This document shows positions 1,358 through 46,559 of a DNA stretch of 64,000 bases, piece by piece. A model generated the notes under the pieces. The model saw nothing but the letters and a program-made list of their open reading frames with translations. It was not told the origin of the DNA and did no database searches. Origin of the DNA: Candidatus Nomurabacteria bacterium (GTDB lineage: Bacteria; Patescibacteriota; Minisyncoccia; Phycocordibacterales; JACOZG01). Each line of letters starts with the position of its first letter. Position 1 is the stretch's first letter. A program made the translations under genes and the position numbers. The DNA is taken from NCBI GenBank assembly GCA_020847275.1, contig JADLCI010000001.1:2540-66539 (forward strand), in the 5' to 3' direction.

Positions 1358-2311
1358 TCAAGCACCCCCCTCCTTCAGCCACGCCTCAATAATTGAGATC
1401 GCTTCCCCGGCAGTATTTGTATCCATCAGCCTTAGTCTAAGATCTTTATCTGAAACATAGGCCTTGAAATGCTTTTTCATCACCGCAAAGCTCTTAATCT
1501 GGCCAAGTAGTTCCCCGAAGAGTTCAATATGCCACGCTAGAATCTTCAGTTTTTCTGAAGAGCTCGGTAAATCTCTATTCTTTGCAAAAAGAAACGGATT
1601 GCCAAAAATTGCCCGACCCAACATTCCCCCATCAGCCCCACTGGCATTCACCCTTTCTCGCGCATCAGCTAAATCACGTAGATCTCCATTACCAATGATC
1701 AGGGTCTCGCTTTTTAGCTCATTCCTAATTTCTACTGCCCGACCCACTTCTTCCCAGCGCGCGTCCACCTTCGACATCTCCTCCCTCGTTCGAGCATGAA
1801 TTGTCACAACCGTGGGTTTCTCCGCCAAGAGCTCTGGCAACCATTCTTCCAGTTGACTATCCTCATAACCCAAGCGCGTTTTCACTGAAACGGGTAAATC
1901 GCCCGCACCACGCTTGGCGGCCCTAATTAGTTCTCTGGCCAATTTTGGATTCTTGATTAGGGCAGCCCCAGCACCCTGCTTCTCTACACTACGATCTGGA
2001 CAACCCATGTTGATATCGAGACCGTCGAAACCAAGTTCAGCCACCAGTCTAGCGGCCTGCTCCATTTTCTCCGGTTTACTGGTAAAAATTTGGGCCACGA
2101 TTGGTCTTTCTGGCTCGGTAAATTTCAAATCATTCAGCAACACCTCCCGACCGGGACTACACAAACCATCGGCCGAGACAAACTCTGTCCACAAAACATC
2201 CGGCTTCCCACACTTCGCGATCACTCGGCGAAAAGCCGCATCCGTCACATCGGCAAGCGGGGCGAGGACGAAAAAGGGTCGAGGTAAGCTAAACCAAAAG
2301 TTCTTGGACAT
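1358..2311 (-). CDS. dus: tRNA-dihydrouridine synthase
   Basis: 317 aa; FFVLAPLADVTDAAFR, TEFVSADGL and DINMGCP motifs of the Dus TIM-barrel flavoenzyme family. Confidence 0.85.
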   Translation of the reverse strand: MSKNFWFSLPRPFFVLAPLADVTDAAFRRVIAKCGKPDVLWTEFVSADGLCSPGREVLLNDLKFTEPERPIVAQIFTSKPEKMEQAARLVAELGFDGLDINMGCPDRSVEKQGAGAALIKNPKLARELIRAAKRGAGDLPVSVKTRLGYEDSQLEEWLPELLAEKPTVVTIHARTREEMSKVDARWEEVGRAVEIRNELKSETLIIGNGDLRDLADARERVNASGADGGMLGRAIFGNPFLFAKNRDLPSSSEKLKILAWHIELFGELLGQIKSFAVMKKHFKAYVSDKDLRLRLMDTNTAGEAISIIEAWLKEGGA

Positions 2312-2312
2312 T

Positions 2313-3176
2313 CTAAGATTCTAGAAATTTATAAAAAACCTTGTCAGCAAATCGCGCATCTAGGTAGTCTAGCCGACGACCAGACTCGAGATTCTTTCGA
2401 TACTCTTTGACAAAGACCTCCGTACCGAGGGCCACTTTAAAATCGGCAAACAACTTTTCTGGATCAGAATTTAAGTTCAAGAAAACAACGGCATTGTTAG
2501 ACAGAAAGAATTTTAATTCCCCATCTAAACCCAGAGCAACCCGTTCTATTCCCAACCCCAAAACAGACTCAGCTAAAGCTTCCGCCAAGCCTGTTTTAAG
2601 ATCAATCAACTTTTTGAAATCCGTCTCAGCAAGTGGGCGACCACCAATCGGGGTTATCGGCAAAGCTCCCTCAATCACAAATAGTGGTCGACCCAAGAAT
2701 TCCGGTGCGGACGCAAAGGCAAGACCATGCTCATCTAAGAAAAAACAGTTGTCACCACCACCATCACACCAAAAATATTTAGCCTCCCGCTCACTGACAC
2801 TGATTGATAGGAGATTATCCTTCTGCGACACTTTTATCTCCTTAAGATCCGGCAGGGACTGCGACAGGGTGCTGATAATGGTCTCCCGCGGGTAAAAGAA
2901 AATGTTTTTTCGGGGGAGAAGACCAAAATAACTACCAGCCAGAATTTCAGCGGACAGATTTTCAATTTTCTCTGCCTTAGTTGGGCTTGCACCACTAATC
3001 CGAACCTCTTGCAACAGAAATTTGTCCCAATGAGCCAGCCAGAGTATCTCTCCGACAAAGACAAGGAGGAGTGTCAGACGAAAAATAAGTTTAAGTCGAT
3101 AGCGTCGTTTACGTTGAGCTTGCGCCTGCTTCAAAATCCCCGACCGACCAGTGATAATCTGTCGTGACATTGCCAT
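2313..3176 (-). CDS. FtsQ/DivIB-like cell-division protein (N-terminal TM plus POTRA-like region), tentative
   Basis: 287 aa; basic N-terminus, a single TM helix and a periplasmic domain of FtsQ-like size and composition. Confidence 0.4.
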   Translation of the reverse strand: MAMSRQIITGRSGILKQAQAQRKRRYRLKLIFRLTLLLVFVGEILWLAHWDKFLLQEVRISGASPTKAEKIENLSAEILAGSYFGLLPRKNIFFYPRETIISTLSQSLPDLKEIKVSQKDNLLSISVSEREAKYFWCDGGGDNCFFLDEHGLAFASAPEFLGRPLFVIEGALPITPIGGRPLAETDFKKLIDLKTGLAEALAESVLGLGIERVALGLDGELKFFLSNNAVVFLNLNSDPEKLFADFKVALGTEVFVKEYRKNLESGRRLDYLDARFADKVFYKFLES

Positions 3177-3177
3177 T

Positions 3178-5574
3178 CTATAAAATAATCAACTTGCCAC
3201 CCAAGAACTCGATCCGCGTCCCCGCTCCAACCTCACCACTAATTATTCTATCCGCAACAGCCTGCTCAACCTTATCCTGAATAAAGCGGGCCAATGGCCG
3301 AGCACCAAAAACTCGATTGGTTCCGGCGTCGGCCACACGATTAATCAGATCATCATTGAGTTGCAGCTCGATGCCCTGAGTCCTCAATCGGGCAACTAAG
3401 CGATTAAGAAGTAGACGAGCAACCTGAAATAGTTCCGCCCCGACCAGTGGATGGAAGATCACAATCTCATCGAAACGGTTGAGCAACTCCGGCCGGAAAA
3501 GTGACCGTTTGATAAGGTGGTTCACCAACTCATCCCGCGCGGTGCTTGGGTCACGCCCCGCCTCTACCATCTCCCAGATCATCTCGGCGGCGGCATTAGA
3601 GGTCGCGATAAAGATGATATTACGCGTATTGACTCGACGACCAAATGCATCAGAGAAAAACCCTTCGTCCAGAATCTGAAGAAACAAGTTAAGCACCTGC
3701 TGACTGGTCTTCTCAAACTCATCCAAAAGTAGAACCCCGTAAGGGTTCTGCCGTAGAAGATTAGCGAGTATCCCCTGTTTATTTTCGGCAAAAGAGCCAA
3801 TCAGACGATTCAAGGCATCATCTGATTGATATTCCGACATATCTAGCCGCAAAAGCGCCTCCTCGCGCCCGAAAAGTGTCCGCGCTAACGCCTTTGCTGT
3901 TTCCGTCTTACCGACGCCAGTTGGCCCCAAAAAAAGAAAACTGCCGATCGGGCGCCCGCGGTTCGCCGTACCCGCACGACTCCGACGAAGCGCCTGACTA
4001 ATTGCTCGTAAAGCCACCTCCTGGCCGATCACTTGATGTTGTAAATTTTGTTCCAAACTCAATAAAGATTCCCGTTCTAAAACAGAAACCGAACCAGCGG
4101 GGATCTTCGTTTTCTGACTGACAAAGGCCAAGACCTCTTCTCGCCCGATAATCTTCTCCCCACTACTCACCGCCCAAGGCACTAACTCCACCAATAAATC
4201 AAGGGCTCGGTCACTGATTGAATCTGTCTGGAAATATCGTCCAGCACTTTCAACCAAAGAAACAAGGGATTGGTAGGTAAAAAAGATTCCCAGCTTCTTT
4301 TCAAAATTTACCGCCACTTCCTCGAGAAAAATGATTAAACGCGACTGGTCGATTTCTGTCGCACGAATAACCTCGAAACGACGGGCTAATTCGGGCACAC
4401 CAGCAATTGACTGTTGATAGGAATCCGTGTCGACAAGAGCAATAATCGGTAAAATTGCCGCCCCAAGATACGGATCGAGAAGCGAGGTTAATTCGCTGCC
4501 AAGTCTCCGCGCGCCAGCAAGCAAAACAGCGAGATCATCAATTACCAAAATCGTATTACCCGACTTGGCGGCCTCATTCATGATCTGCAAAACTGTCTGC
4601 TCAAAAGTGCCGCGCTCTCGATGGTCAGCAATCAGCAGGGCGGCGTGGAGAAGAACCGGGCGGCGGTGTTCTAGGGCCGGCACTACGAAACCACTCTTAA
4701 TTTCATTCGCCAATTGCCAAATTATATCCATCTTTGACTCCCCTGCGGGCCCAACAATAAGCGCATTTGATTCTTGGCTACGCAGGAGGACATTCTCCAA
4801 CTGTCGAACCTCGTCGCGACGCACCGTGGCGGTCTGCCGAAAGCCACTTGATTGTGGTGCCAGCAATAAATCTTCACTGTAACGATCGAGGACAAAGGTC
4901 TGTCCGAAAGACCAATCCTTAGCCAAACCAGGAATTCTTCCCAAACTCTCACGACTCCACCAGCGCTCGGCAAGAGCCTTGCGCTCAATCTCACTCACCA
5001 CCCAAGCAACCGCGCCAACCAATTCCGGCTGATTGATCTCGTGGCGGAAAAGGAATTTGGCAAAATCTTCATTGTTGGAATAAATCCAGTCCGCCAACTT
5101 GGCCAAGGTTAGCGGTTCAGCGCCCGCGAGAGAGAGGGTGGGCAGATTCTTTTTCTGTGGTCGTGTCTGAAGAAAAGATCGGATCTCCGTATCCATCACC
5201 CCAAGACGTCTTAAAACCAAATTTCCCGTCTTGGATAACATAAAAGCCGTCAGAACATCCTCATCTTTATTTCTCAATCGATACAAAATACGCCCAACCG
5301 TAAAGGTGAAGAGATCCTCACGCCGATAACGATTAGTAATGATGCTAGAAAAATAATAAGAACGGAAAAAAACCTCAAGGAGGTGAAGCATCAGAATTGC
5401 CGTCGCGAGAATAAGCACCAATCCCAACCATCGAGAAGTCTGATCGAGAGACAAGAGCAATGCGAGTGTCATCACCTCCACTACCCAACGAAGAAATCGT
5501 CGGTCGCGACGGGAAATCAGGTTCTCCAAAACAAGAACTGGGTAAAGTCGACTAGATTTTATTCTTTCAAACAT
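3178..5574 (-). CDS. Membrane-anchored Clp/Hsp100-family AAA+ ATPase with degenerate first nucleotide-binding domain
   Basis: 798 aa; two N-terminal TM helices. The D2 domain is intact ([15 protein letters not shown]...LLRLDMSEYQ, sensor-2 region). The D1 Walker A is replaced by GPAGESKM. Confidence 0.7.
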   Translation of the reverse strand: MFERIKSSRLYPVLVLENLISRRDRRFLRWVVEVMTLALLLSLDQTSRWLGLVLILATAILMLHLLEVFFRSYYFSSIITNRYRREDLFTFTVGRILYRLRNKDEDVLTAFMLSKTGNLVLRRLGVMDTEIRSFLQTRPQKKNLPTLSLAGAEPLTLAKLADWIYSNNEDFAKFLFRHEINQPELVGAVAWVVSEIERKALAERWWSRESLGRIPGLAKDWSFGQTFVLDRYSEDLLLAPQSSGFRQTATVRRDEVRQLENVLLRSQESNALIVGPAGESKMDIIWQLANEIKSGFVVPALEHRRPVLLHAALLIADHRERGTFEQTVLQIMNEAAKSGNTILVIDDLAVLLAGARRLGSELTSLLDPYLGAAILPIIALVDTDSYQQSIAGVPELARRFEVIRATEIDQSRLIIFLEEVAVNFEKKLGIFFTYQSLVSLVESAGRYFQTDSISDRALDLLVELVPWAVSSGEKIIGREEVLAFVSQKTKIPAGSVSVLERESLLSLEQNLQHQVIGQEVALRAISQALRRSRAGTANRGRPIGSFLFLGPTGVGKTETAKALARTLFGREEALLRLDMSEYQSDDALNRLIGSFAENKQGILANLLRQNPYGVLLLDEFEKTSQQVLNLFLQILDEGFFSDAFGRRVNTRNIIFIATSNAAAEMIWEMVEAGRDPSTARDELVNHLIKRSLFRPELLNRFDEIVIFHPLVGAELFQVARLLLNRLVARLRTQGIELQLNDDLINRVADAGTNRVFGARPLARFIQDKVEQAVADRIISGEVGAGTRIEFLGGKLIIL

Positions 5575-5580
5575 GGTGCA

Positions 5581-5967
5581 TTATAATAAAAGCTTTATTC
5601 CCAAAAGAAGGCTCGCGACAACGATAAACGGCAAAGCAAACCAAACAATAAAAACAGCAAATCCTATCAACATTGAGATAAACAAAACAAATGTCCCGAA
5701 AACGACCAACAGAAAACGGATCAGGAAACCAATGAGACGCATAAATGTATTGATGAAGAAGCTTGCGAAAATTTCTGACAGATTAAAGCGACCAGGATAA
5801 GCCTCCCCCAGCCGTCTCCATGGAGAAAATAAAGTTTTCAGTAGTACGGGCAGAGAAAAGAAGTGGTAAATAAACCAGAGAAAGTCGCGGTAAATCCGGG
5901 AGAGGTCTCCCCAGGCAACCGTGTAATGCCAAACGAGATAATTAAATGGCAGAACCAAAATTGGCAT
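5581..5967 (-). CDS. hypothetical polytopic membrane protein
   Basis: 128 aa, highly hydrophobic with about 4 TM segments; no recognisable motif. Confidence 0.4.
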   Translation of the reverse strand: MPILVLPFNYLVWHYTVAWGDLSRIYRDFLWFIYHFFSLPVLLKTLFSPWRRLGEAYPGRFNLSEIFASFFINTFMRLIGFLIRFLLVVFGTFVLFISMLIGFAVFIVWFALPFIVVASLLLGIKLLL

Positions 5968-7201
5968 ATTGCTCTAGAACTGTTGGCAATTTAACCTTGC
6001 CATCAGCTTGCTGATAATTTTCCACCAAAGCGGCGATAATTCGTGGTGTTGCCATCGCCGTACAGTTGAGCGAGTGAGCAAAGTGAATCTTGCCATCGGT
6101 TCCACGATAGCGAATATTGAAACGTCTTGTCTGGAAATCGTGATAATAGGACGCACTAGACCCCTCGCGATAAGTTTTCTGACTTGGAAACCAGATCTCC
6201 GTGTCATACTGTTTTACCTTACTCAGTCCAAGATCACCGCCACAAATAAGAAGCCTTCGATAAGGCAACCCGAGTGACTCTAGAAATTCCTCATAATTAC
6301 GATTTAGCTCTTCGTGTATCCGGGCTGACTCAGTGTGATCAGCTTTGCATAAGATGAGTTGCTCTAGTTTAAAAAACTCATGGACCCGAATTAGACCCTT
6401 CACGTCCTTACCGTGACTCCCGGCCTCACGACGATAACACGGTGAGAAAGCAAGATAACGCTTCGGTAAATCTAACTCATCTAAAATTTCATCCCCATGA
6501 TAAGCCATCATGGGTACTTCGGCTGTCCCAGAGAGATAATCATCGTCCTGGGTCTTAAACAAATCTTCAGACTCTCTTGGAAGATGGCCCGTACCATAGA
6601 AATATTCTTTTTTTACAATTGCCGGAGCAATAAATGGCTGATAATCTTTCTGGCCAAAAAAAGCTCGCGCGGAGTTCCATAGCGCCCAAGAAAGTTCGGC
6701 CCCATCTCCACAAAGAAAGTAGCCCCGAAATCCGTGAACTTTTGTCCCCCTCTCGAAATCAACCCAGCCCAAATTCTGCATTAACTCAATGTGATCCTTA
6801 GGGGTGAAATCAAATTTAGGCTTCTCCCCCCAAGTGGCCACCTCCACATTCTCGCTTTCATCTTTCCCGTCTGGAACCGAAACATCTGGAACATTCGGCA
6901 CCTGAAGCATCAGTCTCTGCCAATCGATCACAATCTCCTTCAGATCCGCTTCGTCTGTTTTGAGCTTAGTCTTTAAATCACGTAACTTGGTTAGAATCTC
7001 TGCTTGACCAGAAATATCTGTCTTCGCCACCTCTTCTCCCAGTTTATTCTGTTCAGCCCGCTTAGACTCTACCTCCGCCAACAACTTCAAGCGTTTCTCG
7101 TCTAAGACCAACAATTCTTCCACATTAAAGTCCAGGTGCTTTTTCATCACCGCGCTTTTGACTAATTCCGCATTCTCTCGAATAAACTTGATGTCCAACA
7201 T
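5942..7201 (-). CDS. serS: seryl-tRNA synthetase
   Basis: 419 aa; N-terminal coiled-coil arm (MLDIKFIRENAELV...) and class II aaRS core motifs. Confidence 0.93.
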   Translation of the reverse strand: MLDIKFIRENAELVKSAVMKKHLDFNVEELLVLDEKRLKLLAEVESKRAEQNKLGEEVAKTDISGQAEILTKLRDLKTKLKTDEADLKEIVIDWQRLMLQVPNVPDVSVPDGKDESENVEVATWGEKPKFDFTPKDHIELMQNLGWVDFERGTKVHGFRGYFLCGDGAELSWALWNSARAFFGQKDYQPFIAPAIVKKEYFYGTGHLPRESEDLFKTQDDDYLSGTAEVPMMAYHGDEILDELDLPKRYLAFSPCYRREAGSHGKDVKGLIRVHEFFKLEQLILCKADHTESARIHEELNRNYEEFLESLGLPYRRLLICGGDLGLSKVKQYDTEIWFPSQKTYREGSSASYYHDFQTRRFNIRYRGTDGKIHFAHSLNCTAMATPRIIAALVENYQQADGKVKLPTVLEQYANFGSAI

Positions 7202-7216
7202 ATGGCGGAATTATAA

Positions 7217-7246
7217 CAAAAAAAGCCCCGCGCGACAACGCGGGGC
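7217..7246 (-). terminator. intrinsic terminator after the 138-aa gene
   Basis: GCCCCGCG-CGACAA-CGCGGGGC hairpin followed on the minus strand by TTTTTTTG. Confidence 0.55.
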
Positions 7247-7258
7247 TTGAGTCTCAAA

Positions 7259-7675
7259 TCAACCTTTTCTCTTCTTTCTTTTCTTTTTCTTGGGTCGGAC
7301 TTGATCACGGCGGAAATCCCGGAGAAACTGCTCAAGTCTTGCAAATTCTTCTTCCGAGAGAGCGTCGACAAAAACATCCTTGGTCCGCCTGGCACCAAGA
7401 ATCCGATCGTCAGGCCAACGCAAAATCGCAAACGTATCAACCCAACCATCCGGACAATTCCGGGCGAGACAACGGAGGTTCACGGCCAACAGACCCAAGG
7501 ATAACCCCATAGACTCCGCTCCATCGCCCGATTCCCCGTTCAGATTAAAACGATAGTATCTAACCCCATCACTTCCGACCCCAACGAACATAACGATTCT
7601 CGCCTGAACCCGCTCTGCCGTGTCCGATGAACCTCGAACGAATGAATCCATACCTATCTCCTTTGTAAAAGACAA
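7259..7675 (-). CDS. hypothetical protein with poly-Lys/Arg C-terminal tail
   Basis: 138 aa; the C-terminus is RPKKKKRKKRKG; no family recognised. Confidence 0.4.
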   Translation of the reverse strand: MSFTKEIGMDSFVRGSSDTAERVQARIVMFVGVGSDGVRYYRFNLNGESGDGAESMGLSLGLLAVNLRCLARNCPDGWVDTFAILRWPDDRILGARRTKDVFVDALSEEEFARLEQFLRDFRRDQVRPKKKKRKKRKG

Positions 7676-15518: not shown

Positions 15519-16250
15519 ATGTATTTTGCTGGTGATCTGACAAAATCAAGCAAATGGGAACTTCTTCACCTAAAAGAAGTGTCCTACTGGCATCGGGCCG
15601 GCAGTGGTATCCAAGAGGTATTTAACAGAATGCGGGCGTCCGGTAAGAAGCATCTAAGTGAGATGGACACTGAAACTATCGAGGTCTGGGTCACCACCAT
15701 GCTTGCTCTGGCAATGCAGCACAGAGAGAAAAAGATTTTTTGGCTTGGAAAACCAAAAAACGATCCACCTGACATGGCAGTTATGACCGTTACGGAAACG
15801 GGTTATTTTCATGCGCGAGAAATCGAGGTCACAAGATGTATGCACCCAAACGAGAACCTGATCAAAAATATTTTGAAAAAAGACCGAGAAAATAAATTAT
15901 CAGAAAAATATATTCTATGTGGTTTTATGGAGATTCATGGTCATTACAATTTAGTCTCTATCGGCAATTACCTTCAAACTAAATTGGAGAATATTAAAAA
16001 TGTGGTCTTGGTTTTTAATGGGGGGATGATTTTTAATACAGATGAAATTGCGACAAGAAATTTGTGGACTGTGGCTCAAATATCACCAGTCTTTGACGCT
16101 ATTACTGTGAACATATCGTCCGAATACAATAACTGGTTAAACGACCCAGACAAGCTCCGTTATACAAAAAATGGCCAAATATATTTTGGTAAGAAAACAC
16201 TAGACGAGACTTATCCTACAATTTTACCTAATACTCCAATCTCTTTTTGA
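15519..16250 (+). CDS. hypothetical protein (orphan; AT-rich 3' half)
   Basis: 243 aa, no recognisable motif. GC falls to about 33% in the second half. Candidate promoter TTGAGC-17-TATATT lies just upstream. Confidence 0.5.
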   Translation: MYFAGDLTKSSKWELLHLKEVSYWHRAGSGIQEVFNRMRASGKKHLSEMDTETIEVWVTTMLALAMQHREKKIFWLGKPKNDPPDMAVMTVTETGYFHAREIEVTRCMHPNENLIKNILKKDRENKLSEKYILCGFMEIHGHYNLVSIGNYLQTKLENIKNVVLVFNGGMIFNTDEIATRNLWTVAQISPVFDAITVNISSEYNNWLNDPDKLRYTKNGQIYFGKKTLDETYPTILPNTPISF

Positions 16251-16842: not shown

Positions 16843-19521
16843 TTAGGCCGTAGACACAAGCCGTTTACCATTCGTTCGTAGTGTCCGTTTCTTCAATTCA
16901 ATTACCGGCTCACCATTCTTCATTTCTACCACGAGAACTCCCCCACTCTCGATTTTCCTCCCAATAATAAACTCCGCGACTTGATTAAGAATTTTATTTT
17001 GAATTAAACGCTTGAGCGGACGCACGCCATATTCAGAACTATAACCCTCGCGAGCGAGATAGGCCATTGTCTCCGTTGAGACTTCCAATTTGATCTGCTT
17101 GTGTGCTAAACGCCCCCTCACCAGCTGAAGCTGGATATCCACAATCTCCTTAATCGTCTCGGCCGGTAGCGGGTTGAAGATAATGATGTCATCCAGGCGG
17201 TTCAAGAATTCCGGGCGGAAGTGATTCTTAAGACTTTCCATGATGCGCTGTTTAGTTTCATTGTAATCAGTCTTCGCCGTGCCGTCACCACTAGAGAAAC
17301 CAATCTTTTGAAGTCGTTGGATATACTCACTGCCAATATTGGACGTGAGAATAATAATTGTGTTCTTGAAATTGACGACGCGACCCTTGCCGTCCGTAAG
17401 ACGGCCATTATCCAGGACCTGAAGTAAGATGTTGAAAACTTCCGGATTCGCTTTCTCAATTTCATCGAAAAGTAAAACGGCATAGGGCCGATGACGCACC
17501 GTTTCGGTCAATGACCCGCCCTCTTCGTAACCCACATAACCTGGTGGTGAACCGATAAGTTTGGAGATAGAATATTTCTCCATATATTCACTCATATCAA
17601 TCCGCACCAACGCCTTCTCATCGTCAAACATAAAGTGAGCAAGAGTACGAGCTAATTCGGTCTTACCAACACCGGTTGGGCCAAGCAAAATAAAGGAGCC
17701 AATTGGTCGATCTGGATCACCCACACCCGCGCGTGAACGCTTGACCGCCTCGGCGATTTTCTTAATTGCCTCATCTTGTCCACGAACCCGTTTGCGCAAC
17801 TCATCTTCAATCCGCGTCAGTCTCTGTGATTCTCCCTCCAACATTTTCGTCACCGGAATATGAGTCCAGCGCGCCACCACTTTGGCAATTTCTTCATCCG
17901 TTACTTCTTCCTTCAGAATCCGCCTGGAACTCTGCAGTTTCTTAAGCTTTAATTCCTTGACCTTCAAATCCTTCTCCAGCTGAGGGATTTTGCCATAACG
18001 AATCTCGGCCGCATGAGAGAGGTCGGCCCGCCATTCCGACTGTTCAGCCTCCAGGCGCGCCGTCTCTAAATCACGCTTCACCACTTTGATTTCGGAAATT
18101 ACCTCTTTCTCATTTTTCCACTTTAACTCCAATTCACGGACCTCTTCGCGGAGATCACTAACCTCTTTCTCAATCTTCTTAATCCTGGCCCTAGTTTGTT
18201 TATCATCCTTGAGAGATAGCTCTTTTTTCAATGCCTCCTTCTCAACCTCCAAACGCATAATCTTAGTATCCGTTTCCCCCAAGAGTTCTGGTTTGTTTTC
18301 TAGTTGTAAGCGAAGGGCTGAAGCCGCTTCATCAACCAGATCAATTGCCTTATCGGGCAGAAAGCGATCACTGATGTAGCGGGCAGAGAGCTGGGCCGCG
18401 GCAACAATTGCGCTATCGGTAATATGAACACCATGATGTGACTCGTAACGCTCCTTCAATCCGCGCAAGATCGTAATTGCGTCATCAACTGAAGGTTCTT
18501 CCACATGAACAGGCTGGAAACGACGAGTAAGTGCTTGATCCTTCTCAATATATTTCTGGTATTCCTTAATCGTTGTCGCCCCAATCGCCCGCAACTCACC
18601 TCGCGCCAATGCCGGCTTGAGCATGTTGGAAGCATCAATTGCCCCCTCAGCCGCACCAGCTCCCACAATCGTATGAATCTCGTCGATAAAGAGAATAAAC
18701 TTGTTACCAGAACGTTCTAGTTCTTTCAAAACCCCCTTCAATCGTTCCTCGAATTCACCACGATATTTTGTACCAGCGACAATCAAACCGAGGTCAAGTG
18801 AGACTAGCTCTTTATCTCGTAAAGATTCAGGTACATCATTTTTTGCAATCTTGATTGCTAAACCCTCCGCAATTGCCGTCTTTCCCGTTCCCGCTTCGCC
18901 AATCAGAATCGGGTTATTTTTTGTCCTTCGAGAAAGAATCTCCATCAAGCGTTGAATTTCCTCCTCTCTCCCAATGACCGGATCAAGCTTATCCGCCTTC
19001 GCTAATTCCGTTAGATTTTTTGTAAATTTTTCGATATTACGAAACTTCTTTGACTGGTCTACTTCATGTGTCTGGCTCATCCGCAACTCCTGCAAAACCT
19101 TCAACACCCTTTCCTTTGTCACACGGAAACGGGCCAGAATCTCGTGGGCTTGATTTGGTGTCTCGAGAAGACCAAGCAGAAGATGCTCCGTGGAAACAAA
19201 CTCGTCTTGCAAATTAGCGGCAATTTTTCCGGATGTATCAAAAACTTTCACCAATTCTGGTGTTAGATAAATCTGGTAAGCCGCCGAGAGTACCCCTGTC
19301 TGCTCACTACCCTCAAGACTTTCCACGACATAGTCTGTCAGCATTGCCGTGTCCACCTCAATTTTATCCAAAATGGAAACAAACATACTTTCCTCCTGCA
19401 GAAGAAGAGCGGCCAAGAGATGAACCGGGCCGACCTGATTCTGACCCCGCTCAATAGCGAGTTCATGCGTCTTCCGAATTACCTCTTTCGCTTTCGCTGT
19501 GAAGTTAGAAAATGGTGGCAT
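16843..19521 (-). CDS. clpB: ATP-dependent chaperone ClpB
   Basis: 892 aa; N-domain, D1 ([15 protein letters not shown]), long coiled-coil M-domain, D2 ([15 protein letters not shown]) and the C-terminal sensor. Confidence 0.95.
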
Positions 19522-19529
19522 ATAAAATT

Positions 19530-20348
19530 TTATTTTAGAATACTATTGTTTGTCGCTCCAATCATTGCCGCTGTCACCGCTACCCCCGCATCACGTGAGA
19601 GACCAATCACCTTACCCTTGGTATTCAGAAGCGGTCCACCAATGTTATTTAAATTTGAGGCACTTGTATTGATGAAAGAGGTGCCGGAAACCGTATCCTT
19701 AAATAGTCCGGAAACAATACCGCCAGAAACATTGATTGGGCCATTATCTGGTACACCGAGCGCTACGACAGTTTGACCGGGCAAAACTTCCGTCTCAACT
19801 AAATCCAGTTTTACTAATGGTGCCTTAGAGGCATCTTTCCCATCACCATCTCTCAAACTAGCCAGAACGAGTTGAAGCAGAACCACACTTTTCTTTGCGT
19901 CGGTTCTAATTAATCTTGCGTCACCATGACGACCATCACCCAAGAAAATTTGATAGGAATCATTGATTGTCGGGCCAGTAAGAAAAACCTTATCGACTGT
20001 CGCAATCCGACCATCGTCCGAAATAATAAAACCCGTACCAAGAGCCACACCCGATCTATCTGTAATACGCACCGTTGCGGGCGAGGCAGAGTTAATCACA
20101 TCCACAATCAGCTGTTCTTCGGTCACAATTACCGGCACCTCTTTTATTACAGTTGTCGTCTTGGTTTCTCCAGGGACAGTTTTCTCAATCGTCCGCTCTA
20201 CCACTCGATTAATTGTTTGCGTCACGCCCGGTGGCGCCTGCTGAAGTAGTGTCACCGTTACGATACCTGTAGCGATAGAGGTGACGAAGCTAACGAGTAG
20301 AACCAACAAAACAACCTGATTTTTATTTAATTCCTCCATTTTGTGCAA
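19530..20348 (-). CDS. trypsin-like (S1C/HtrA-like) protease homolog without PDZ, possibly catalytically inactive
   Basis: 272 aa; N-terminal TM, chymotrypsin-fold motifs (GTGFIISDDGRIATV, GGPLLNTKGKVIGL). The expected His (TNAHV) and Ser (GDSGGP) positions read ATVDK and NNIGGP. Confidence 0.55.
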   Translation of the reverse strand: MHKMEELNKNQVVLLVLLVSFVTSIATGIVTVTLLQQAPPGVTQTINRVVERTIEKTVPGETKTTTVIKEVPVIVTEEQLIVDVINSASPATVRITDRSGVALGTGFIISDDGRIATVDKVFLTGPTINDSYQIFLGDGRHGDARLIRTDAKKSVVLLQLVLASLRDGDGKDASKAPLVKLDLVETEVLPGQTVVALGVPDNGPINVSGGIVSGLFKDTVSGTSFINTSASNLNNIGGPLLNTKGKVIGLSRDAGVAVTAAMIGATNNSILK

Positions 20349-20895
20349 TATACCATACTTTTTCCCAATTCACAATATTCCAAAAAGCATCAACGTATTC
20401 GGCCCTGCGGTTTTGATACCTTAGATAGTAGGCGTGCTCCCACACATCTAATCCAAGTAACACTGTCCCCTCCGGCACATCCTGATTCGCCGTACTCGTT
20501 ATCTCCATTTTACCAGCGCTTCCTAATGTGAGCCAGACCCAACCAGAACCAAACCGCCCCAAAGCGGCCTCCTTAAATAACTTCTGAAAATTTCCAAAAT
20601 TTTCGAAACTCTCATCAATTTTTTCCTTGATTGATTTGCTCTCCTTTGATCCCAGAATCCCCCAGAAAAAAGTGTGATTCCAGTGTCCTCCGGCATTATT
20701 TTTCACCGCCGGTATTTCGCTTGCGCACAGATCGTCCAAACTTTTATTTTTCAAGTCTGGATTCTTTTCCAATTCGGCGTTTAGTTTATCAATATAGACT
20801 TGATGGTGCTTGGTGTGGTGGATACGCATTGTCTGTTCATCGATCCACGGTTCCAACGCATTGTATTCGTAATCTAATTTAGGAAGTGTGTACAT
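20323..20895 (-). CDS. sodA: Fe/Mn superoxide dismutase
   Basis: 190 aa; LPKLDYEYNALEP, HHTKHHQ.Y and the DVWEHAYY metal-ligand motifs. Confidence 0.9.
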   Translation of the reverse strand: MYTLPKLDYEYNALEPWIDEQTMRIHHTKHHQVYIDKLNAELEKNPDLKNKSLDDLCASEIPAVKNNAGGHWNHTFFWGILGSKESKSIKEKIDESFENFGNFQKLFKEAALGRFGSGWVWLTLGSAGKMEITSTANQDVPEGTVLLGLDVWEHAYYLRYQNRRAEYVDAFWNIVNWEKVWYIAQNGGIK

Positions 20896-20898
20896 CGT

Positions 20899-21945
20899 TT
20901 ACAAAATTATTTTATTTAAAACCCTCACTCTTTCTAATTTTTCTAAAATTCTTGGCAGGACTTTCAAAACATAATCTAAATCCTTCTTTCTTGTCTCTGT
21001 TGCCAATGAGAATCGTACTGAATTTATTATAACATGGGAATTATTTCGTGCAGAAATAGAACAAGCAGAACCAGTAGAAACAGCCACCCCCTTCGCATCC
21101 AACTCCAGCGCAATTTGTTCACCAAGCAGGCCGTCAAAACTGACATTCACATTGTTTGCCAGTCTCCACTCTCCTTCCGGACCGTTCAATTTTACACCGG
21201 GCAATTTTAGTAGTTCAGAGATGAAATAATCCCGCAACTTGGCCACTCTTTTGCTTTCCCGATTCCTATTTTTGCTTGCCAGTTCTAACGCTCTTGCAAA
21301 CCTGGTAATCCCTTCCACATTTTCTGTCCCCGATCTTAAACCTTTCTCTTGTCCACCACCAAGAAAAACTGGGCTTAGACTAACGCCACGCCGCACAAAG
21401 AGGCAGCCAACTCCCGGCACACCCAGCTTACTGCCGTTTAGGGTCATTAAATCTACGCCTAATTTCTGAACATTCAGATCTAGATATCGTGGTGCTTGGC
21501 AGGCGTCGATATGCAAATATGGCTGGTGTGTTTTATTTTTCTGGCGAAACTTTCTAACAGACTTCGCCACCTCTCTAATTGGCAGGATCACGCCAGTTTC
21601 ATTGTGGGCATAGATAATTGAGACTAGATCTGTTTCACGGCGCAAAGACTCTTTTAAACTAGAAATATCCTTCAAAAAAGTGGCGTTAAGGGTCGCAGCA
21701 GGTTCCAGAACCGAAGCATGTTCTAACTCGGTGACAATAAGATGCCTGGGACGAAGGCCAAAAATTGCTAAATTATTGCCCTCTGTCCCGCCCGAAGTGA
21801 AAATAATCTCGTCTGGTTGAGAAAACAGGACACGCGCCACCTTGTCTCTGGCTTTTTCCAGTTTTATTTTGGCCACCACCCCGCTGGCATGTAAGCTAGA
21901 TGGATTCCGTGGTCCAGCCGCTGCGTCTAGAAAAATTTGCTTCAT
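20899..21945 (-). CDS. cysteine desulfurase / class V aminotransferase (NifS/IscS-like)
   Basis: 348 aa; PLP-fold motifs (IIFTSGGTEGNN, HNETG, LNGSKLGVPGVGCL). Confidence 0.8.
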   Translation of the reverse strand: MKQIFLDAAAGPRNPSSLHASGVVAKIKLEKARDKVARVLFSQPDEIIFTSGGTEGNNLAIFGLRPRHLIVTELEHASVLEPAATLNATFLKDISSLKESLRRETDLVSIIYAHNETGVILPIREVAKSVRKFRQKNKTHQPYLHIDACQAPRYLDLNVQKLGVDLMTLNGSKLGVPGVGCLFVRRGVSLSPVFLGGGQEKGLRSGTENVEGITRFARALELASKNRNRESKRVAKLRDYFISELLKLPGVKLNGPEGEWRLANNVNVSFDGLLGEQIALELDAKGVAVSTGSACSISARNNSHVIINSVRFSLATETRKKDLDYVLKVLPRILEKLERVRVLNKIIL

Positions 21946-24713: not shown

Positions 24714-25823
24714 ATGTTTGAGGTAAACTGGGCAAATATCTGGTCAACAACCACTCCATTCCTTTGGTGGTTCGGAATTCCTCTCATCACGGTTTTCCTG
24801 ATACTTCTGGTTAATCTGATGGCAAGGAACGATTTCATCATTGGGTTCGTCCCAGAGGGTCAAATCAAGGCGGTCTTAGCTGGTGATTCGTTACACAAAC
24901 TACTGGTAAATATCGGTGGTTATGATTACGATCGCGAGCTCAGAGAAATTACACCCAGCAGTAAGAAAAAACCATGGAGACCCTTTGGAATTTACTGGAT
25001 TGGCCTACCGCCATTCAAAAGTGTCCTACGTTATCCTTTCTCATGGGTAAAGTGGGATAAGCCGGAAGACTCAGCCCACTTTGCGCTGATTCCGCGGAAT
25101 CGAGAGATTGTCAGTTCCCTTTTCTTCCGGTATCCGTATGGCGTACAGGTCAGGGGCATCAGACTAAAAGGAAACATTGAGGTTGAAATCACACTTGTAG
25201 TCACACTCGAAATAGTTAGACCAGAAACAACCCTATTTCGGATCCAACCAACTGGTAATTGGCTCGGACTCGTTATAGCCAAAGTCGAAGAGGCTACTCG
25301 TGGTTGGGCTGGTGAAAAGGGAAACGAAGGGGAGGAGTTTGATGTTGAAAAACTTCGTTCCTTGGCCGCGAGAGAAGAAGGTGCCGCAGATGACCTGCGA
25401 ACACGAATTATGGAAATGAACGGGCATCCACCCACAGAGGGGTTGCCAGAATCAGCAGACGGCACCAGAAGACTTTGCGGTGTAGACATCATCTCTGTTG
25501 ATTTCCAGGGTTGGAAATTCGTCGACCCGGACGCTGAAAAAGCTTACCAGAGTGAGGAGATTGAGAATCGAGTGGCCGATGGCGTAAGAGCCAAAGCAGA
25601 CGGTGAAGCGGCCCGAATCGGAAAAGTTGGTGACGCCGAAGCAAGGGTCATCGCCGCCAAACTTAACGCCGCAGGTGGTAACCACACCCTGGCCGCGAGC
25701 CTGGCACAAGCAACAGCTCTGCAAGAAACCAATGTCAGAGTCCTGTCTCTTGCTGGTGGGACACCACCAATCAACACCATTCCGGTTGATGGACCAACAG
25801 CAGATGACACAAGGGAAGACTGA
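24714..25823 (+). CDS. SPFH/band-7 (flotillin/YqiK-like) membrane protein
   Basis: 369 aa; SD AGAAGGAGAAT; N-terminal TM, an SPFH beta/alpha core, and a C-terminal Ala/Glu-rich helical region (AEKAYQSEEIENRVADGVRAKADGEAARIG...). Confidence 0.55.
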   Translation: MFEVNWANIWSTTTPFLWWFGIPLITVFLILLVNLMARNDFIIGFVPEGQIKAVLAGDSLHKLLVNIGGYDYDRELREITPSSKKKPWRPFGIYWIGLPPFKSVLRYPFSWVKWDKPEDSAHFALIPRNREIVSSLFFRYPYGVQVRGIRLKGNIEVEITLVVTLEIVRPETTLFRIQPTGNWLGLVIAKVEEATRGWAGEKGNEGEEFDVEKLRSLAAREEGAADDLRTRIMEMNGHPPTEGLPESADGTRRLCGVDIISVDFQGWKFVDPDAEKAYQSEEIENRVADGVRAKADGEAARIGKVGDAEARVIAAKLNAAGGNHTLAASLAQATALQETNVRVLSLAGGTPPINTIPVDGPTADDTRED

Positions 25824-25972: not shown

Positions 25973-26146
25973 ATGTTTGAAAGTGTTGGGATTGTGTCCA
26001 TTGTGAGTGTTGTCTCAATACTCTATGGAGTATTGGGAATCCTCTGGTGTTTCCGGCGAGAAATCAAAACCACACTGCGTTTTCTACACAAATTATGGAA
26101 GGCTCGCAAAGAACTCTGGCAAAAAGCCAAGGAGGAAAACAAATGA
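25973..26146 (+). CDS. small membrane protein (57 aa), first gene of a two-gene operon
   Basis: SD AGAAGGAG; MFESVGIVSIVSVVSILYGVLGILWCF is one TM followed by a basic amphipathic tail; its stop overlaps the next start (ATGA). Confidence 0.45.
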   Translation: MFESVGIVSIVSVVSILYGVLGILWCFRREIKTTLRFLHKLWKARKELWQKAKEENK

Positions 26147-26817
26147 CGAGAAAGATTCTTTTACTTTCGTCTGTCGTGGCGATAATGATGGGTAGTTTTT
26201 TTCTTTTCTCAAATGGCACAAGAAAAGCTGTTGTCCCGTCACCACCGGCCATAGAAACTAACAACCCCTTAAACCTGGCAGAGAAACTTGTCACCATATC
26301 TCTAATTGGGCTTCTAGTGGCAATCGGACTTCTGGCGATCTACAGAATGTGGAAAATAACCAGAGGTAACCATGACAAACAGGATAAAGACAAAAATGGG
26401 GAGGACAGAAAATCGACACCGATCAACTGGAAGTGGGTCGGGAAAACAGCGGGAAGTTTTGTCTTACTCATTCTGCTTGTTCTTGGTGGTTACTGGCTAT
26501 ACACCAGCGATCAATCAATCACCGGTCGGTGGGCACGGCCACAACAAACGAACCGAGGCCGTGTTGGCACCCTTGGCTGGGACGAACTGATCGCAACAAG
26601 CGATGCGTGGTCCAGACCAACGAAACCGATCCCCGGTGATTGTGACTTCCAGATCCACGAGGACGGAGACGGCTGGATCAAGTTTCCCAACGGGGAAATC
26701 CATGAGATTGGACCAATGGTTCTGGTTAATTGGCCAGATATCCCAAGGGGAAGTTTCCAGTTCAAAGCCAAGGAAGGGTCAATCAAGGTTAAGGTCGTCT
26801 GGCAACCGAGGCGCTAG
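26143..26817 (+). CDS. hypothetical membrane protein (3 predicted TM helices plus a C-terminal soluble domain)
   Basis: 224 aa from the ATG at 26143 (SD AAGGAGGAAAA); TM helices at about 10-30, 75-97 and 130-150; the C-terminal 70 aa are hydrophilic. Confidence 0.5.
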   Translation: MTRKILLLSSVVAIMMGSFFLFSNGTRKAVVPSPPAIETNNPLNLAEKLVTISLIGLLVAIGLLAIYRMWKITRGNHDKQDKDKNGEDRKSTPINWKWVGKTAGSFVLLILLVLGGYWLYTSDQSITGRWARPQQTNRGRVGTLGWDELIATSDAWSRPTKPIPGDCDFQIHEDGDGWIKFPNGEIHEIGPMVLVNWPDIPRGSFQFKAKEGSIKVKVVWQPRR

Positions 26818-38597: not shown

Positions 38598-38877
38598 ATG
38601 CGAAGTCCTGGGCGACGCTTACGACCTAAGCGTCGCTTTCGTAACCGACCGTAAGTCAACTCATAATGTTTTAAGCTATCCGCTTAGTTCTGAGTCGGGT
38701 GAAATTTTGATTAATAAAAAAAGGGCAAAAAAAGATGGTTACACTCCGCTAGAGCTTTTTATCCACGGACTTCTTCATTTGAAAGGCATGCGTCATGGTA
38801 GTAGAATGGAAAGTGAGGAAAAGAAATTAATTAAACTCTTCACTTCTAATGGCCCGTCACATCGTCGCCGGACTTGA
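38566..38877 (+). CDS. ybeY: rRNA maturation endoribonuclease YbeY (short)
   Basis: 103 aa; DLSVAFVTD...VLSYPL and the metal site HGLLHLKGMRHG (H3xH5xH); overlaps the rpsU 3' end. Confidence 0.6.
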   Translation: MNGLRNWEKIKCEVLGDAYDLSVAFVTDRKSTHNVLSYPLSSESGEILINKKRAKKDGYTPLELFIHGLLHLKGMRHGSRMESEEKKLIKLFTSNGPSHRRRT

Positions 38878-40018
38878 TATCGGAACCGCGAGTATTCGTC
38901 TCGTTGTCAGTGAAGTGGTGCCCGAATCAAGTTCTCCGCGCGTACTCTGTCAGGTCAAAAAAGATTCACGCGGTTTGAGGCGCGGTTACATCATCAACCC
39001 CGACGAAACACTAGAAAATCTCAAAGACGCGGTGAAAGAAGCAGAACGTCAGACCAAAATTAAATTAAAGAGCGTTTTACTTTCCATCGGTGGCATAACC
39101 CTAGACGCTAAAGTTGCAAGTGGCCAGGTAACAATCTCCCGGGCGGATCAAGAAGTAAGCGACGCTGACCAGAAACGTGCCTTGGAGACCGCCCGTGCTT
39201 CTCTTGGAGATTTCCCCAACCGCCAGGTTATCCATCAAATTCCACTTAGCTTTAAGCTAGACGGGGAGAAGGTGCTCGGTCAGCCAGTGGGTCTTCGCGG
39301 CAATAAGCTGGAAGTAAAAGTACTTTTTATCCACTCGCTATCTCAACACCTAAATGATCTCATTCGTGTCGTTGGTCTAGCGGGGCTTAGCGTAGACGAT
39401 GTCGTCGCGGCGCCACTGGCGGGCAGTTTCTCTACCCTTTCAACCACCCAGAAAATGGCAGGTGTCGCCTTGGTGAATATCGGCTCGCAAACTACCTCAA
39501 TTATTACTTTTGAAGAAGGGATCCCCCTATCTCTCCAGGTTTTTCCCTTTGGTTCCAATGATGTCACCAATGACATTGCGCTCGGCCTGAAAGTTTCACT
39601 TGAGGAAGCCGAACAGTTAAAGCTTGGTGGTAACCAGAATCAGGCGGTGGGTCTGAAGAAAAAACTAGACGAGATAATAGAGGCCCGTCTTACTGACATT
39701 TTCGAGTCTGTGGAAGCACATTTGAAAAAGATCGGTCGCAACAGTCTTCTCCCGGCCGGCATTATTATTGTGGGTGATGGTGGTAATTTAGAAAACATTG
39801 AACGACTTGCCAAAACCTCACTACGCTTACCGGCCCGCTTATTCGACCCGCTTCAGGCACCACAGCTCAAAACCCAAATTAGAGATGCCTCATGGGTCGT
39901 GGCCTATGGCCTTTGTCTCTTCGGCTTTGGACTTGTTTCCGAGGAACCACTTGGAACAACGTTGGTTCAGACAACTAAATCATCTTTCGTTCGTTGGATC
40001 AAAGAATTTTGGCCGTAA
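38849..40018 (+). CDS. ftsA: cell division protein FtsA
   Basis: 389 aa; actin-fold phosphate-1 GLDIGTASIRLVV, VNIGSQTTSIITFEEG and GIIIVGDGGNL. Confidence 0.85.
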   Translation: MARHIVAGLDIGTASIRLVVSEVVPESSSPRVLCQVKKDSRGLRRGYIINPDETLENLKDAVKEAERQTKIKLKSVLLSIGGITLDAKVASGQVTISRADQEVSDADQKRALETARASLGDFPNRQVIHQIPLSFKLDGEKVLGQPVGLRGNKLEVKVLFIHSLSQHLNDLIRVVGLAGLSVDDVVAAPLAGSFSTLSTTQKMAGVALVNIGSQTTSIITFEEGIPLSLQVFPFGSNDVTNDIALGLKVSLEEAEQLKLGGNQNQAVGLKKKLDEIIEARLTDIFESVEAHLKKIGRNSLLPAGIIIVGDGGNLENIERLAKTSLRLPARLFDPLQAPQLKTQIRDASWVVAYGLCLFGFGLVSEEPLGTTLVQTTKSSFVRWIKEFWP

Positions 40019-44404: not shown

Positions 44405-44415
44405 AGACCCTCATT

Positions 44416-46544: not shown

Positions 46545-46559
46545 TTACTTAACTAAGAA

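Follow-up and report, generated by a model that had tools for sequence, protein, structure and literature searches.

FtsH carries a two-helix, N-terminal membrane anchor and forms a hexameric AAA+ ring on the cytoplasmic side of the membrane, and in Pex1/Pex6, a type-II AAA+ ATPase, the ring of first ATPase modules (D1) is largely inactive, the second modules (D2) provide the motor and a small membrane protein (Pex15 or Pex26) holds the ring. The membrane anchor of YME1L is described as driving hexamerization (PMC5095350), the membrane-anchored AAA+ protein Msp1 as extracting membrane proteins (PMC12793716), and HSP101, a ClpB-type Hsp100 protein, as working within the membrane-embedded PTEX translocon of Plasmodium (PMC6550532). 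Here, we describe a gene for a membrane-anchored, Hsp100/Clp-like ATPase in a 64,000-nucleotide (nt) stretch of DNA from a Candidatus Nomurabacteria bacterium (contig JADLCI010000001.1; this whole stretch is referred to as the window). The ATPase combines a membrane hairpin, a degenerate D1 and an intact D2, and we are highly confident both of this architecture and of its forming a two-protein unit with the small membrane protein encoded directly ahead of it (the partner). What is new here, as judged from sequence, is that a motor family already known takes on a membrane-integral, two-component form and is widespread in this form within one major bacterial radiation. A literature search retrieved no description of a transmembrane (TM)-anchored Hsp100 protein or of the partner, which is not proof of novelty.

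The gene occupies positions 3178-5574 of the window as a single, ATG-started open reading frame (ORF) of 798 codons on the minus strand, the plus-strand reading being riddled with stops; an earlier, sequence-only reading had placed a 798-residue protein at these positions without giving a strand. The product matches exactly a public sequence named "ATP-dependent Clp protease ATP-binding subunit". In a domain-by-domain comparison with profile hidden Markov models (HMMs), Pfam recognized the second module only (AAA_2 at residues 541-704, 6.5e-43; ClpB_D2-small at residues 714-789, 2.7e-18), and in the first half neither Clp_N nor AAA_lid_9 was found, nor any significant AAA match. The NCBIfam models for ClpB, ClpA, ClpV, ClpK and ClpG all matched, far below their cut-offs (ClpA, TIGR02639, 350 bits with a cut-off of 993; ClpB, TIGR03346, 383 bits with a cut-off of 1232, D2 alone aligning; ClpV, TIGR03345, 311 bits with a cut-off of 885). 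The best full-length alignment among NCBIfam models was obtained with ClpA, to positions 100-730 of which residues 154-788 aligned in one stretch, and ClpA sequences in the PDB also spanned both modules. This single-stretch alignment therefore indicates a two-ring layout without a long middle domain. In the alignment with E. coli ClpB, residues 398-534 of the latter, which comprise the M-domain, had no counterpart, and residues 463-479 of the ATPase bridged the gap.

An AlphaFold model built with a 35-sequence alignment (predicted local distance difference test [pLDDT] 85.2, predicted TM-score 0.75) consists of two long helices, a seven-helix domain and both AAA+ modules, in this order. Its best Foldseek matches are subunits of ClpC, ClpB and ClpC1 hexamers, with target-normalized TM-scores of about 0.7 over about 585 columns. 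Together with the residue alignments and motif counts below, the Pfam and NCBIfam comparisons show the protein, as predicted from its sequence, to be a two-ring (class-I) relative of the Hsp100/Clp proteins whose layout is ClpA-like and which lacks an M-domain; the earlier proposal of a membrane-tethered member of this family is thus upheld.

D1 departs from E. coli ClpB at most of the positions that define a working AAA+ site. In Walker A (GEPGVGKT in ClpB), the Lys is kept and the second Gly and the Thr/Ser are lost; the DE of Walker B has become DD (IDDL), and the sensor-1 Thr is lost, Val/Asp standing in its place. The Arg fingers (RR in ClpB) are kept in the window protein. The altered Walker A and B residues confirm the sequence-only reading in its view of D1 as degenerate. 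Its further claim, that the P-loop lacks the context of the Walker lysine, holds in part: the Lys itself is present, and the preceding Gly and the following Thr are gone. Motif counts over 65 sequences, i.e. the window protein and 64 species-representative family members, gave the Walker A Lys in 30 sequences, a Thr after this Lys in four and the Walker B Glu in six; the position of the ClpB pore-loop Tyr was aromatic in none of the 65. D1 is nevertheless still conserved, with a mean pairwise identity of 38% and near-invariant GN.IL, RFE, FTY and D.A.DLL.E motifs, and we therefore suggest that it is maintained for a structural role. The alignments show D1 to keep the AAA+ fold without the Walker A, Walker B, sensor-1 and pore-loop residues, i.e. 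to be a predicted pseudo-ATPase ring with no signs of decay.

In D2, the nucleotide site is complete. Besides its Walker motifs, this module carries LLRLDMSEYQ (residues 574-583), a TSN sensor-1, an NRFD Arg finger and a GARP sensor-2. No variation occurs in Walker A among the 65 species representatives, nor in Walker B, sensor-1, Arg finger or sensor-2 wherever the residue is present (one or two of the 65 sequences being gapped), and the mean pairwise identity of D2 reaches 57%. The earlier description of D2 as canonical thus extends, for the nucleotide-site motifs, across the representatives; the counts show all catalytic residues to be retained and mark D2, at the level of these motifs, as the sole motor. 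The D2 pore loop is four residues shorter than that of ClpB, and the GYVG tyrosine lies inside the deletion (HMMER alignment). A Phe or Tyr occupies the loop position in 27 of 35 homologues, and a Phe in 45 of the 65 representatives. Between sensor-1 and the Arg finger, where the ClpP-docking IGF/IGL loop of ClpA, ClpC and ClpX is located, an [ILVM]G[FLM] tripeptide occurs in none of the 65 sequences; in 52 of them, this segment comprises 35 residues, a ClpB-like length.

Ahead of the two rings lie two hydrophobic segments, residues 27-43 (FLRWVVEVMTLALLLSL; mean Kyte-Doolittle value 1.85, marginal) and residues 49-70 (WLGLVLILATAILMLHLLEVFF; 2.28), connected by a 5-residue loop and flanked by Arg-rich stretches on both sides (RRDRR ahead of the hairpin, FFRSYYF..NRYRRED behind it). 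Two such segments with Arg-cluster flanks fit an in-out-in hairpin that leaves the ATPase body in the cytoplasm. At a threshold of 1.6, two hydrophobic segments were found at the equivalent place in 31 of 35 aligned homologues, and 30 of these 31 carry two to five Lys/Arg within the 15 residues ahead of TM1. AlphaFold places the anchor helices at residues 21-40 and 46-77, with pLDDT values of 78-90 in blocks over residues 21-70 and of 70 over residues 71-80. The mean pairwise identity of the hairpin is 23%. The two N-terminal TM helices of the sequence-only reading are therefore borne out by hydropathy, by homologues and by the model, which together show a predicted two-helix hairpin that anchors the ATPase in the cytoplasmic membrane, with both hairpin ends and the ATPase body facing the cytoplasm.

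The hairpin is followed by a helical domain (residues 88-203) that, in an hhalign comparison with a ClpB alignment, was colinear with the two Clp_N repeats, a weak match (E 0.0079, probability 5%); this domain is possibly a very divergent Clp_N double repeat. Between it and D1 lies a Trp-rich motif that is the best-conserved element of the ATPase outside D2 (mean identity 61%, compared with 38% for D1).

A word-indexed search retrieved 34 full-length relatives of the ATPase (770-847 residues, 38-89% identity), after which scores fell from 534 to 303 bits, to ordinary ClpB and ClpC proteins matching mainly D2. For a more sensitive census, a family profile restricted to the N-terminal 260 residues was scored against 1.84 billion cluster representatives (50% identity). 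At least 618 proteins matched this N-module at E<=1e-3, 416 of them at <=1e-10 and 184 at <=1e-30, so that homologs with the same N-terminal anchor region are numerous; the N-module begins at about residue 1 throughout the family, and full-length members consistently comprise 780-860 residues. Because these features recur across hundreds of homologues, the combination of an anchor, a dead D1 and a live D2 is not due to chance. No curated model for the N-module or for the partner exists in Pfam, NCBIfam or PADLOC, and PDB sequences match the AAA+ modules of the ATPase only.

Species loci were collected from GTDB species-representative genomes with a degenerate DNA pattern for the Trp-rich signature (RWW..[RK]..[KE][DN]W.[YF]G), which biases the resulting set toward members that retain this signature. 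The pattern returned 91 stretches, among which an HMM screen recognized 67 clear family members and two weak ones; 22 stretches from other phyla were chance pattern matches with no HMM match. The family loci are labeled Patescibacteria, Parcubacteria, Paceibacterota, Taylor-, Nomura-, Vogel-, Zambryski-, Yonath-, Sungii- or Moraniibacteria, or plainly "bacterium"; some are labeled "uncultured Candidatus Saccharibacteria", the label of one bulk submission.

The partner gene stops 6 nt ahead of the ATPase start, and its product ends in a C-terminal TM hairpin with a modeled extracytoplasmic loop of one or two residues. A partner homologue precedes the ATPase gene in all six other loci fetched, which encode distant homologues (37-61% identity), and thus in seven of seven loci when the window is included. 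The seven partner proteins align readily; their invariant residues include Y10, W13, H14, Y15, A18, F36, F37, S38 and P49 as well as R52, N73, M76, R77, G80, R84, W109 and P113. A profile of the partner found at least 368 homologues, all of about 130 residues and either unnamed or called "hypothetical", those named by organism being Patescibacteria; searches of Pfam (E up to 10), NCBIfam and PDB sequences gave no match. Across the species loci, 63 of the 67 family loci could be tested upstream of the ATPase gene, and in 62 of these 63 the partner gene lies immediately upstream on the same strand.

In the 63rd locus, L030 (2938-5259, minus strand), partner domain (residues 7-123) and ATPase are joined in a single reading frame, and the partner domain takes the place of the hairpin and of the larger part of the helical domain; the fusion protein keeps D1 and D2 as well as the Trp-rich motif. 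A second, more divergent fused lineage is represented by L033 (Moraniibacteriota), probably by L031, which is cut by the end of its locus, and by P0389, a cluster of seven member sequences with an L033-type fused N-terminus. The L033/L031 subfamily has a D2 loop of the form G[DS]..G.IEGYF and a Walker A reading GPTGVGKTH. No further fusions were present among the 386 proteins retrieved before P0389, and a later database search added P0389 only. Co-inheritance and in-frame fusion are strong evidence that partner and ATPase act as one physical unit. They also show membrane anchorage itself to be the selected feature. The positions of all these elements, and of the neighboring genes discussed below, are listed in Table 1.

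Table 1. Coordinates of the ATPase, its elements and neighboring genes in the window
Feature	Residues	Position in window	Strand	Basis or remark
ATPase gene, membrane-anchored, Hsp100/Clp-like, 798 residues		3178..5574	minus	NCBI MCC6290464.1, Candidatus Nomurabacteria
N-terminal tail, cytoplasmic	1-26	5497..5574	minus	Conserved motif SRLYPVLxLE..S.R.R and basic cluster ahead of TM1; mean pairwise identity 36%
TM helix 1	27-43	5446..5496	minus	Hydropathy, homologues, AlphaFold
TM helix 2, followed by conserved FFRSYYF	49-70	5365..5430	minus	Hydropathy, homologues, AlphaFold
Helical N-domain	88-203	4966..5313	minus	Seven helices modeled at 90-202 (AlphaFold)
Trp-rich signature motif RWWSRESLGRIPGLAKDWSFG	204-224	4903..4965	minus	61% mean identity; kept in fusion proteins
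D1 AAA+ module	227-463	4186..4896	minus	Aligns to E. coli ClpB 160-397, 71 bits
D1 Walker A, degenerate, GPAGESKM	275-282	4729..4752	minus	Alignment and motif counts
D1 pore-loop equivalent ADHRERGTF, ClpB Y251 replaced by Glu	316-324	4603..4629	minus	Alignment and motif counts
D1 Walker B, degenerate, LVIDDL, catalytic Glu replaced by Asp	343-348	4531..4548	minus	Alignment and motif counts
D2 AAA+ module and D2-small	479-789	3208..4140	minus	Aligns to E. coli ClpB 535-844, 256 bits
D2 Walker A, GPTGVGKT	550-557	3904..3927	minus	Motif counts
D2 pore loop GSFAENKQG, shortened, non-canonical	593-601	3772..3798	minus	HMMER alignment
D2 Walker B, LLLDEFEK	615-622	3709..3732	minus	Motif counts
Partner gene, 128-residue membrane protein, no known family		5581..5967	minus	MCC6290465.1, hypothetical IT398_00045
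serS, first gene of the minus-strand run		5942..7201	minus	Overlaps partner gene by 26 nt
FtsQ/DivIB-like protein, 287 residues, single-pass		2313..3176	minus	Starts 1 nt after ATPase stop codon
dus (tRNA dihydrouridine synthase), last gene of the run		1358..2311	minus	Domain matches
Canonical soluble ClpB paralogue with N-domain and M-domain, 892 residues		16843..19521	minus	Pfam, NCBIfam

The partner and ATPase genes are embedded in a minus-strand run of serS, partner, ATPase, ftsQ-like gene and dus, with intergenic distances of -26, 6, 1 and 1 nt, on account of which the run is very probably one operon. A conserved housekeeping synteny, comprising serS, dprA, topA, dus and dnaX, surrounds the pair. 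The overlap of serS with the partner gene (5942-5967) recurs with an identical length of 26 nt in locus L001 (5609-5634), and this conservation suggests translational coupling of the pair to an essential gene.

The product of the gene downstream of the ATPase starts with a basic tail, followed by a single TM helix and an extracytoplasmic domain. A profile of its family matched only FtsQ chains in the PDB (E 1e-4); among six members, POTRA_1 was found in three (best 5e-4) and FtsQ_DivIB_C in one (3e-5), and all Pfam matches of the window protein itself stayed below the gathering cut-offs. On these profile matches, we read it as a divergent FtsQ/DivIB homologue. Homologues of this protein are encoded next to the ATPase-partner pair in six of the first seven loci; across species, the gene lies directly upstream of the partner gene in 33 of 50 testable loci, and it lies downstream of the ATPase gene in the window, L001 and L022. 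The only FtsA homologue of the window is encoded at 38849-40018 on the plus strand, about 36 kb from the ftsQ-like gene and with no adjoining ftsZ, so that the usual ftsQ-ftsA-ftsZ linkage is broken here.

Genes for peptidoglycan enzymes (Amidase_3, Peptidase_S11, YkuD, PGA_cap) are found downstream in four of the first seven loci, a weak but recurrent association outside the core. In several lineages, the genes directly behind the ATPase gene encode an Amidase_3 protein (L004, 7430-8359), a multi-domain YkuD/Peptidase_S11/PGA_cap protein (L005, 7426-10934), a D-Ala-D-Ala carboxypeptidase (L007, 7476-8450) and a PGA_cap protein (L001, 9284-10318). No type VI secretion system genes were present in the window or in seven annotated loci, no secretion-system genes were found near the pair in the window or the annotated loci, and no peptidase gene was consistently adjacent in the annotated loci. 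A role in anti-phage defense was considered and dropped: PADLOC returned generic AAA matches to D2 only (PDC-M37B, DolB) and no match for the partner or the FtsQ-like protein, and the pair is syntenic with housekeeping genes.

As the sequence-only reading had stated, a full-length ClpB is encoded separately in the window; it carries Clp_N, AAA, AAA_lid_9, AAA_2 and D2-small domains and matches TIGR03346 over its full length at 1171 bits, slightly below the cut-off of 1232 bits. Its gene belongs to a minus-strand run (16843-21945) that also encodes a Trypsin_2/HtrA-like protease (19530-20348), an Fe/Mn superoxide dismutase (20323-20895) and a class-V aminotransferase (20899-21945). This run resembles a stress-type cluster; the anchored paralogue, by contrast, is encoded in a housekeeping operon.

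Elsewhere in the window, genes for GH15 glucoamylase-like, GH57 and GT4/starch-synthase-like proteins (41221-45594, minus strand) suggest storage-glucan metabolism in a small genome. Secreted proteins with CAP domains (cysteine-rich secretory protein family) and PKD domains are encoded at 45618-47813 (minus strand), and a CAP-domain protein is also encoded just upstream of the partner/ATPase pair in a distant locus (L002/L003; L002 4316-5416). Four ORFs for products of 95-369 residues gave no Pfam match at the thresholds applied (24714-25823, 26047-26817 and 15519-16250 on the plus strand, 7162-7449 on the minus strand).

Set against described machines, the ATPase shares with ClpA and ClpC two tandem AAA+ modules without a long M-domain, ClpC and ClpC1 being among its best structural matches; it differs from them by its membrane hairpin, catalytically dead D1, missing ClpP-docking loop and lack of a Pfam-detectable Clp_N, as well as by a non-aromatic D1 pore loop, a shortened D2 loop and scores far below the family cut-offs. 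With ClpB and Hsp104, it has in common a D2 that is closest to that of ClpB (256 bits, about 40% identity), D2-small and the ClpB-like length of the docking segment, whereas it lacks an M-domain, has an inactive D1 and missing or non-canonical pore-loop tyrosines, and is membrane-anchored. In FtsH and YME1L, too, an N-terminal anchor holds the hexameric AAA+ ring at the cytoplasmic (or matrix/IMS) side of the membrane with its entry face toward the bilayer, an arrangement suited to membrane-protein extraction; FtsH, however, has one classical-clade AAA ring joined to an M41 metalloprotease, whereas the ATPase has two Hsp100-clade rings and, by Pfam, no Peptidase_M41 or other peptidase domain. 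With Pex1/Pex6-Pex15, the ATPase and its partner share a working principle, namely a division of labor between an inactive D1 and an active D2, with a small protein as the receptor in the membrane.

In the mechanism that we propose, the ATPase would be a subunit of a membrane-bound AAA+ machine of Patescibacteria (Parcubacteria/Paceibacteria-type), a group whose canonical machinery for division and quality control is in large part reduced. Six subunits would form a double ring, as relatives do, and since the anchor is N-terminal, the D1 (entry) face would be pressed to the inner face of the membrane, held there by 12 TM helices of the ATPase and by the partner's TM helices. Between bilayer and ring, the partner's cytoplasmic domain may form a docking or substrate-presenting layer together with the Trp-rich motif. 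ATP hydrolysis in D2 would pull cytoplasmic segments of membrane proteins into the ring, and thereby extract, unfold or disassemble them; given that a protease-docking loop is lacking, the output would be remodeling or release without direct degradation. In working principle, such a machine would resemble FtsH, Msp1 and Pex1/Pex6-Pex15 more closely than ClpB. We see about even chances that a D2-driven threading or extraction motor operates at the membrane together with the partner. Likely clients would be components of the cell envelope or division apparatus, the foremost candidates being the FtsQ-like protein and its complexes; it is because of this neighbor that divisome and envelope proteins are our best guess, a tentative one that could well be wrong. 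Similarly doubtful is the proposal in its full form, in which the pair would be an undescribed, lineage-wide dislocase or remodeling machine, a prokaryotic, Hsp100-based counterpart of Msp1, Cdc48 and Pex1-Pex6 that acts on divisome or envelope synthesis with FtsQ-like complexes as clients.

Several observations weigh against this proposal. Neither ring has a canonical aromatic-hydrophobic-Gly pore loop, and D1 has none at all; the Phe of the D2 loop is missing in about 30% of members and sits at the base, not the tip, of the modeled hairpin, and the loop is short and polar at its modeled tip (AlphaFold). The L033 (5510-7999, plus strand) and L031 (5796-8000, minus strand) fusions have three hydrophobic segments, not two or four, and three misfit a simple even-numbered topology. 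As regards the clients, about one third of the testable loci lack the FtsQ-like neighbor, peptidoglycan enzymes were found in only 10 of 45 species loci (by a low-sensitivity phmmer test), and the operon also holds unrelated housekeeping genes (serS, dus), which makes the neighborhood weak evidence for a client; the proposed function is inferred from architecture and gene neighborhood.

With non-canonical pore loops in both rings, processive threading of polypeptides is therefore not assured, and a non-threading, ATP-driven switch or scaffold has to be taken as a serious rival. D2 conformations relayed through the partner and the TM helices would then regulate an envelope process, for instance by activating peptidoglycan hydrolases or synthases or divisome assembly in the manner of FtsEX, with no polypeptide translocated. 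The degenerate or non-canonical pore loops, the tight coupling to a membrane partner, the FtsQ-like and peptidoglycan-enzyme genes nearby and a D1 ring that is conserved yet inactive, as a scaffold would be, all fit such a switch. Yet the extracytoplasmic loops, with 5 residues in the ATPase and a modeled one or two in the partner, are too short for direct contact with periplasmic enzymes, most members retain an aromatic residue in the D2 loop, and all characterized Hsp100 relatives known to us act by threading; we regard a switch as quite unlikely. The role suggested by the sequence-only reading, a specialized one in membrane-protein disaggregation or quality control or in scaffolding, is favored only in part. 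Its main idea, taken as a membrane-tethered, ClpB-like general disaggregase or quality-control chaperone that would dissolve membrane-protein aggregates under stress, draws on the clear homology to ClpB, ClpA and ClpC, the intact D2 motor and the anchor, and the coexistence of a soluble ClpB leaves room for specialization. However, the M-domain, which couples ClpB to DnaK/Hsp70, is missing, and with it this kind of coupling; D1 lacks the pore-loop Tyr, and the D2 loop departs from the canonical form; and the ATPase gene lies in a housekeeping operon, whereas the true ClpB is encoded beside an HtrA-like protease and a superoxide dismutase. In addition, an obligate, dedicated partner and an FtsQ-like neighbor suggest specific clients, not general ones, and we consider a disaggregase unlikely.

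A motor for protein translocation, in which the ring would sit on a pore formed by the partner and the TM helices and drive export or import, would be useful to Patescibacteria in their episymbiotic lifestyle. With up to 24 TM helices, a hexamer-partner assembly could line a conduit, and HSP101 in PTEX is described as a translocon motor (PMC6550532), hence a precedent. HSP101 differs, however: it is not known to carry a TM segment, its rings are active and have tyrosines in their pore loops, and it docks through partner proteins and with the opposite polarity. The N-terminal anchor of the ATPase points the substrate-entry (D1) face, not the exit face, at the membrane, and usual N-to-C export would, from the known polarity of Hsp100 proteins, require the opposite orientation; moreover, the TM hairpins are poorly conserved, with no conserved polar lining, and the pair has no secretion-system genes nearby, which together make translocation very unlikely. 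An unfoldase that feeds ClpP or another peptidase is what the public annotation implies, and the ClpA model does give the best full-length alignment. The score of this alignment is nonetheless far below the model's cut-off, IGF/IGL/VGF-type tripeptides are absent from all sequences counted, the docking segment has a ClpB-like length and no peptidase gene is consistently adjacent; coupling to a protease is extremely unlikely, and the public name, in implying it, is probably misleading. Lastly, the degenerate D1 motifs, and nothing further, might be taken to mark a ClpB/ClpC pseudogene in decay, a misassigned start codon or a chimeric assembly giving rise to a spurious hydrophobic N-terminus. 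We reject such an artefact, the chance of which is practically nil: the ORF is intact, hundreds of homologues share its length and an N-module from residue 1, and family-specific motifs and synteny are conserved across species.

Hsp100/Clp unfoldases are textbook soluble machines, and an integral-membrane version that has a pseudo-ATPase D1 ring, a non-canonical D2 pore loop and an obligate partner in the membrane would widen the known roles of the family. With at least 618 clusters at 50% identity, conservation of the ATPase extends over much of the Candidate Phyla Radiation. The present analysis gives a context to two sizeable families that are now called "hypothetical" (the partner) or mis-named as a partner of ClpP (the ATPase). 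The combination of a dead D1, a live D2 and a membrane receptor parallels eukaryotic Pex1/Pex6, and the pair may thus offer a simple model for how an inactive ring contributes to AAA+ function. For minimal, mostly uncultured bacteria, it would represent a testable candidate for membrane-protein turnover or divisome remodeling.

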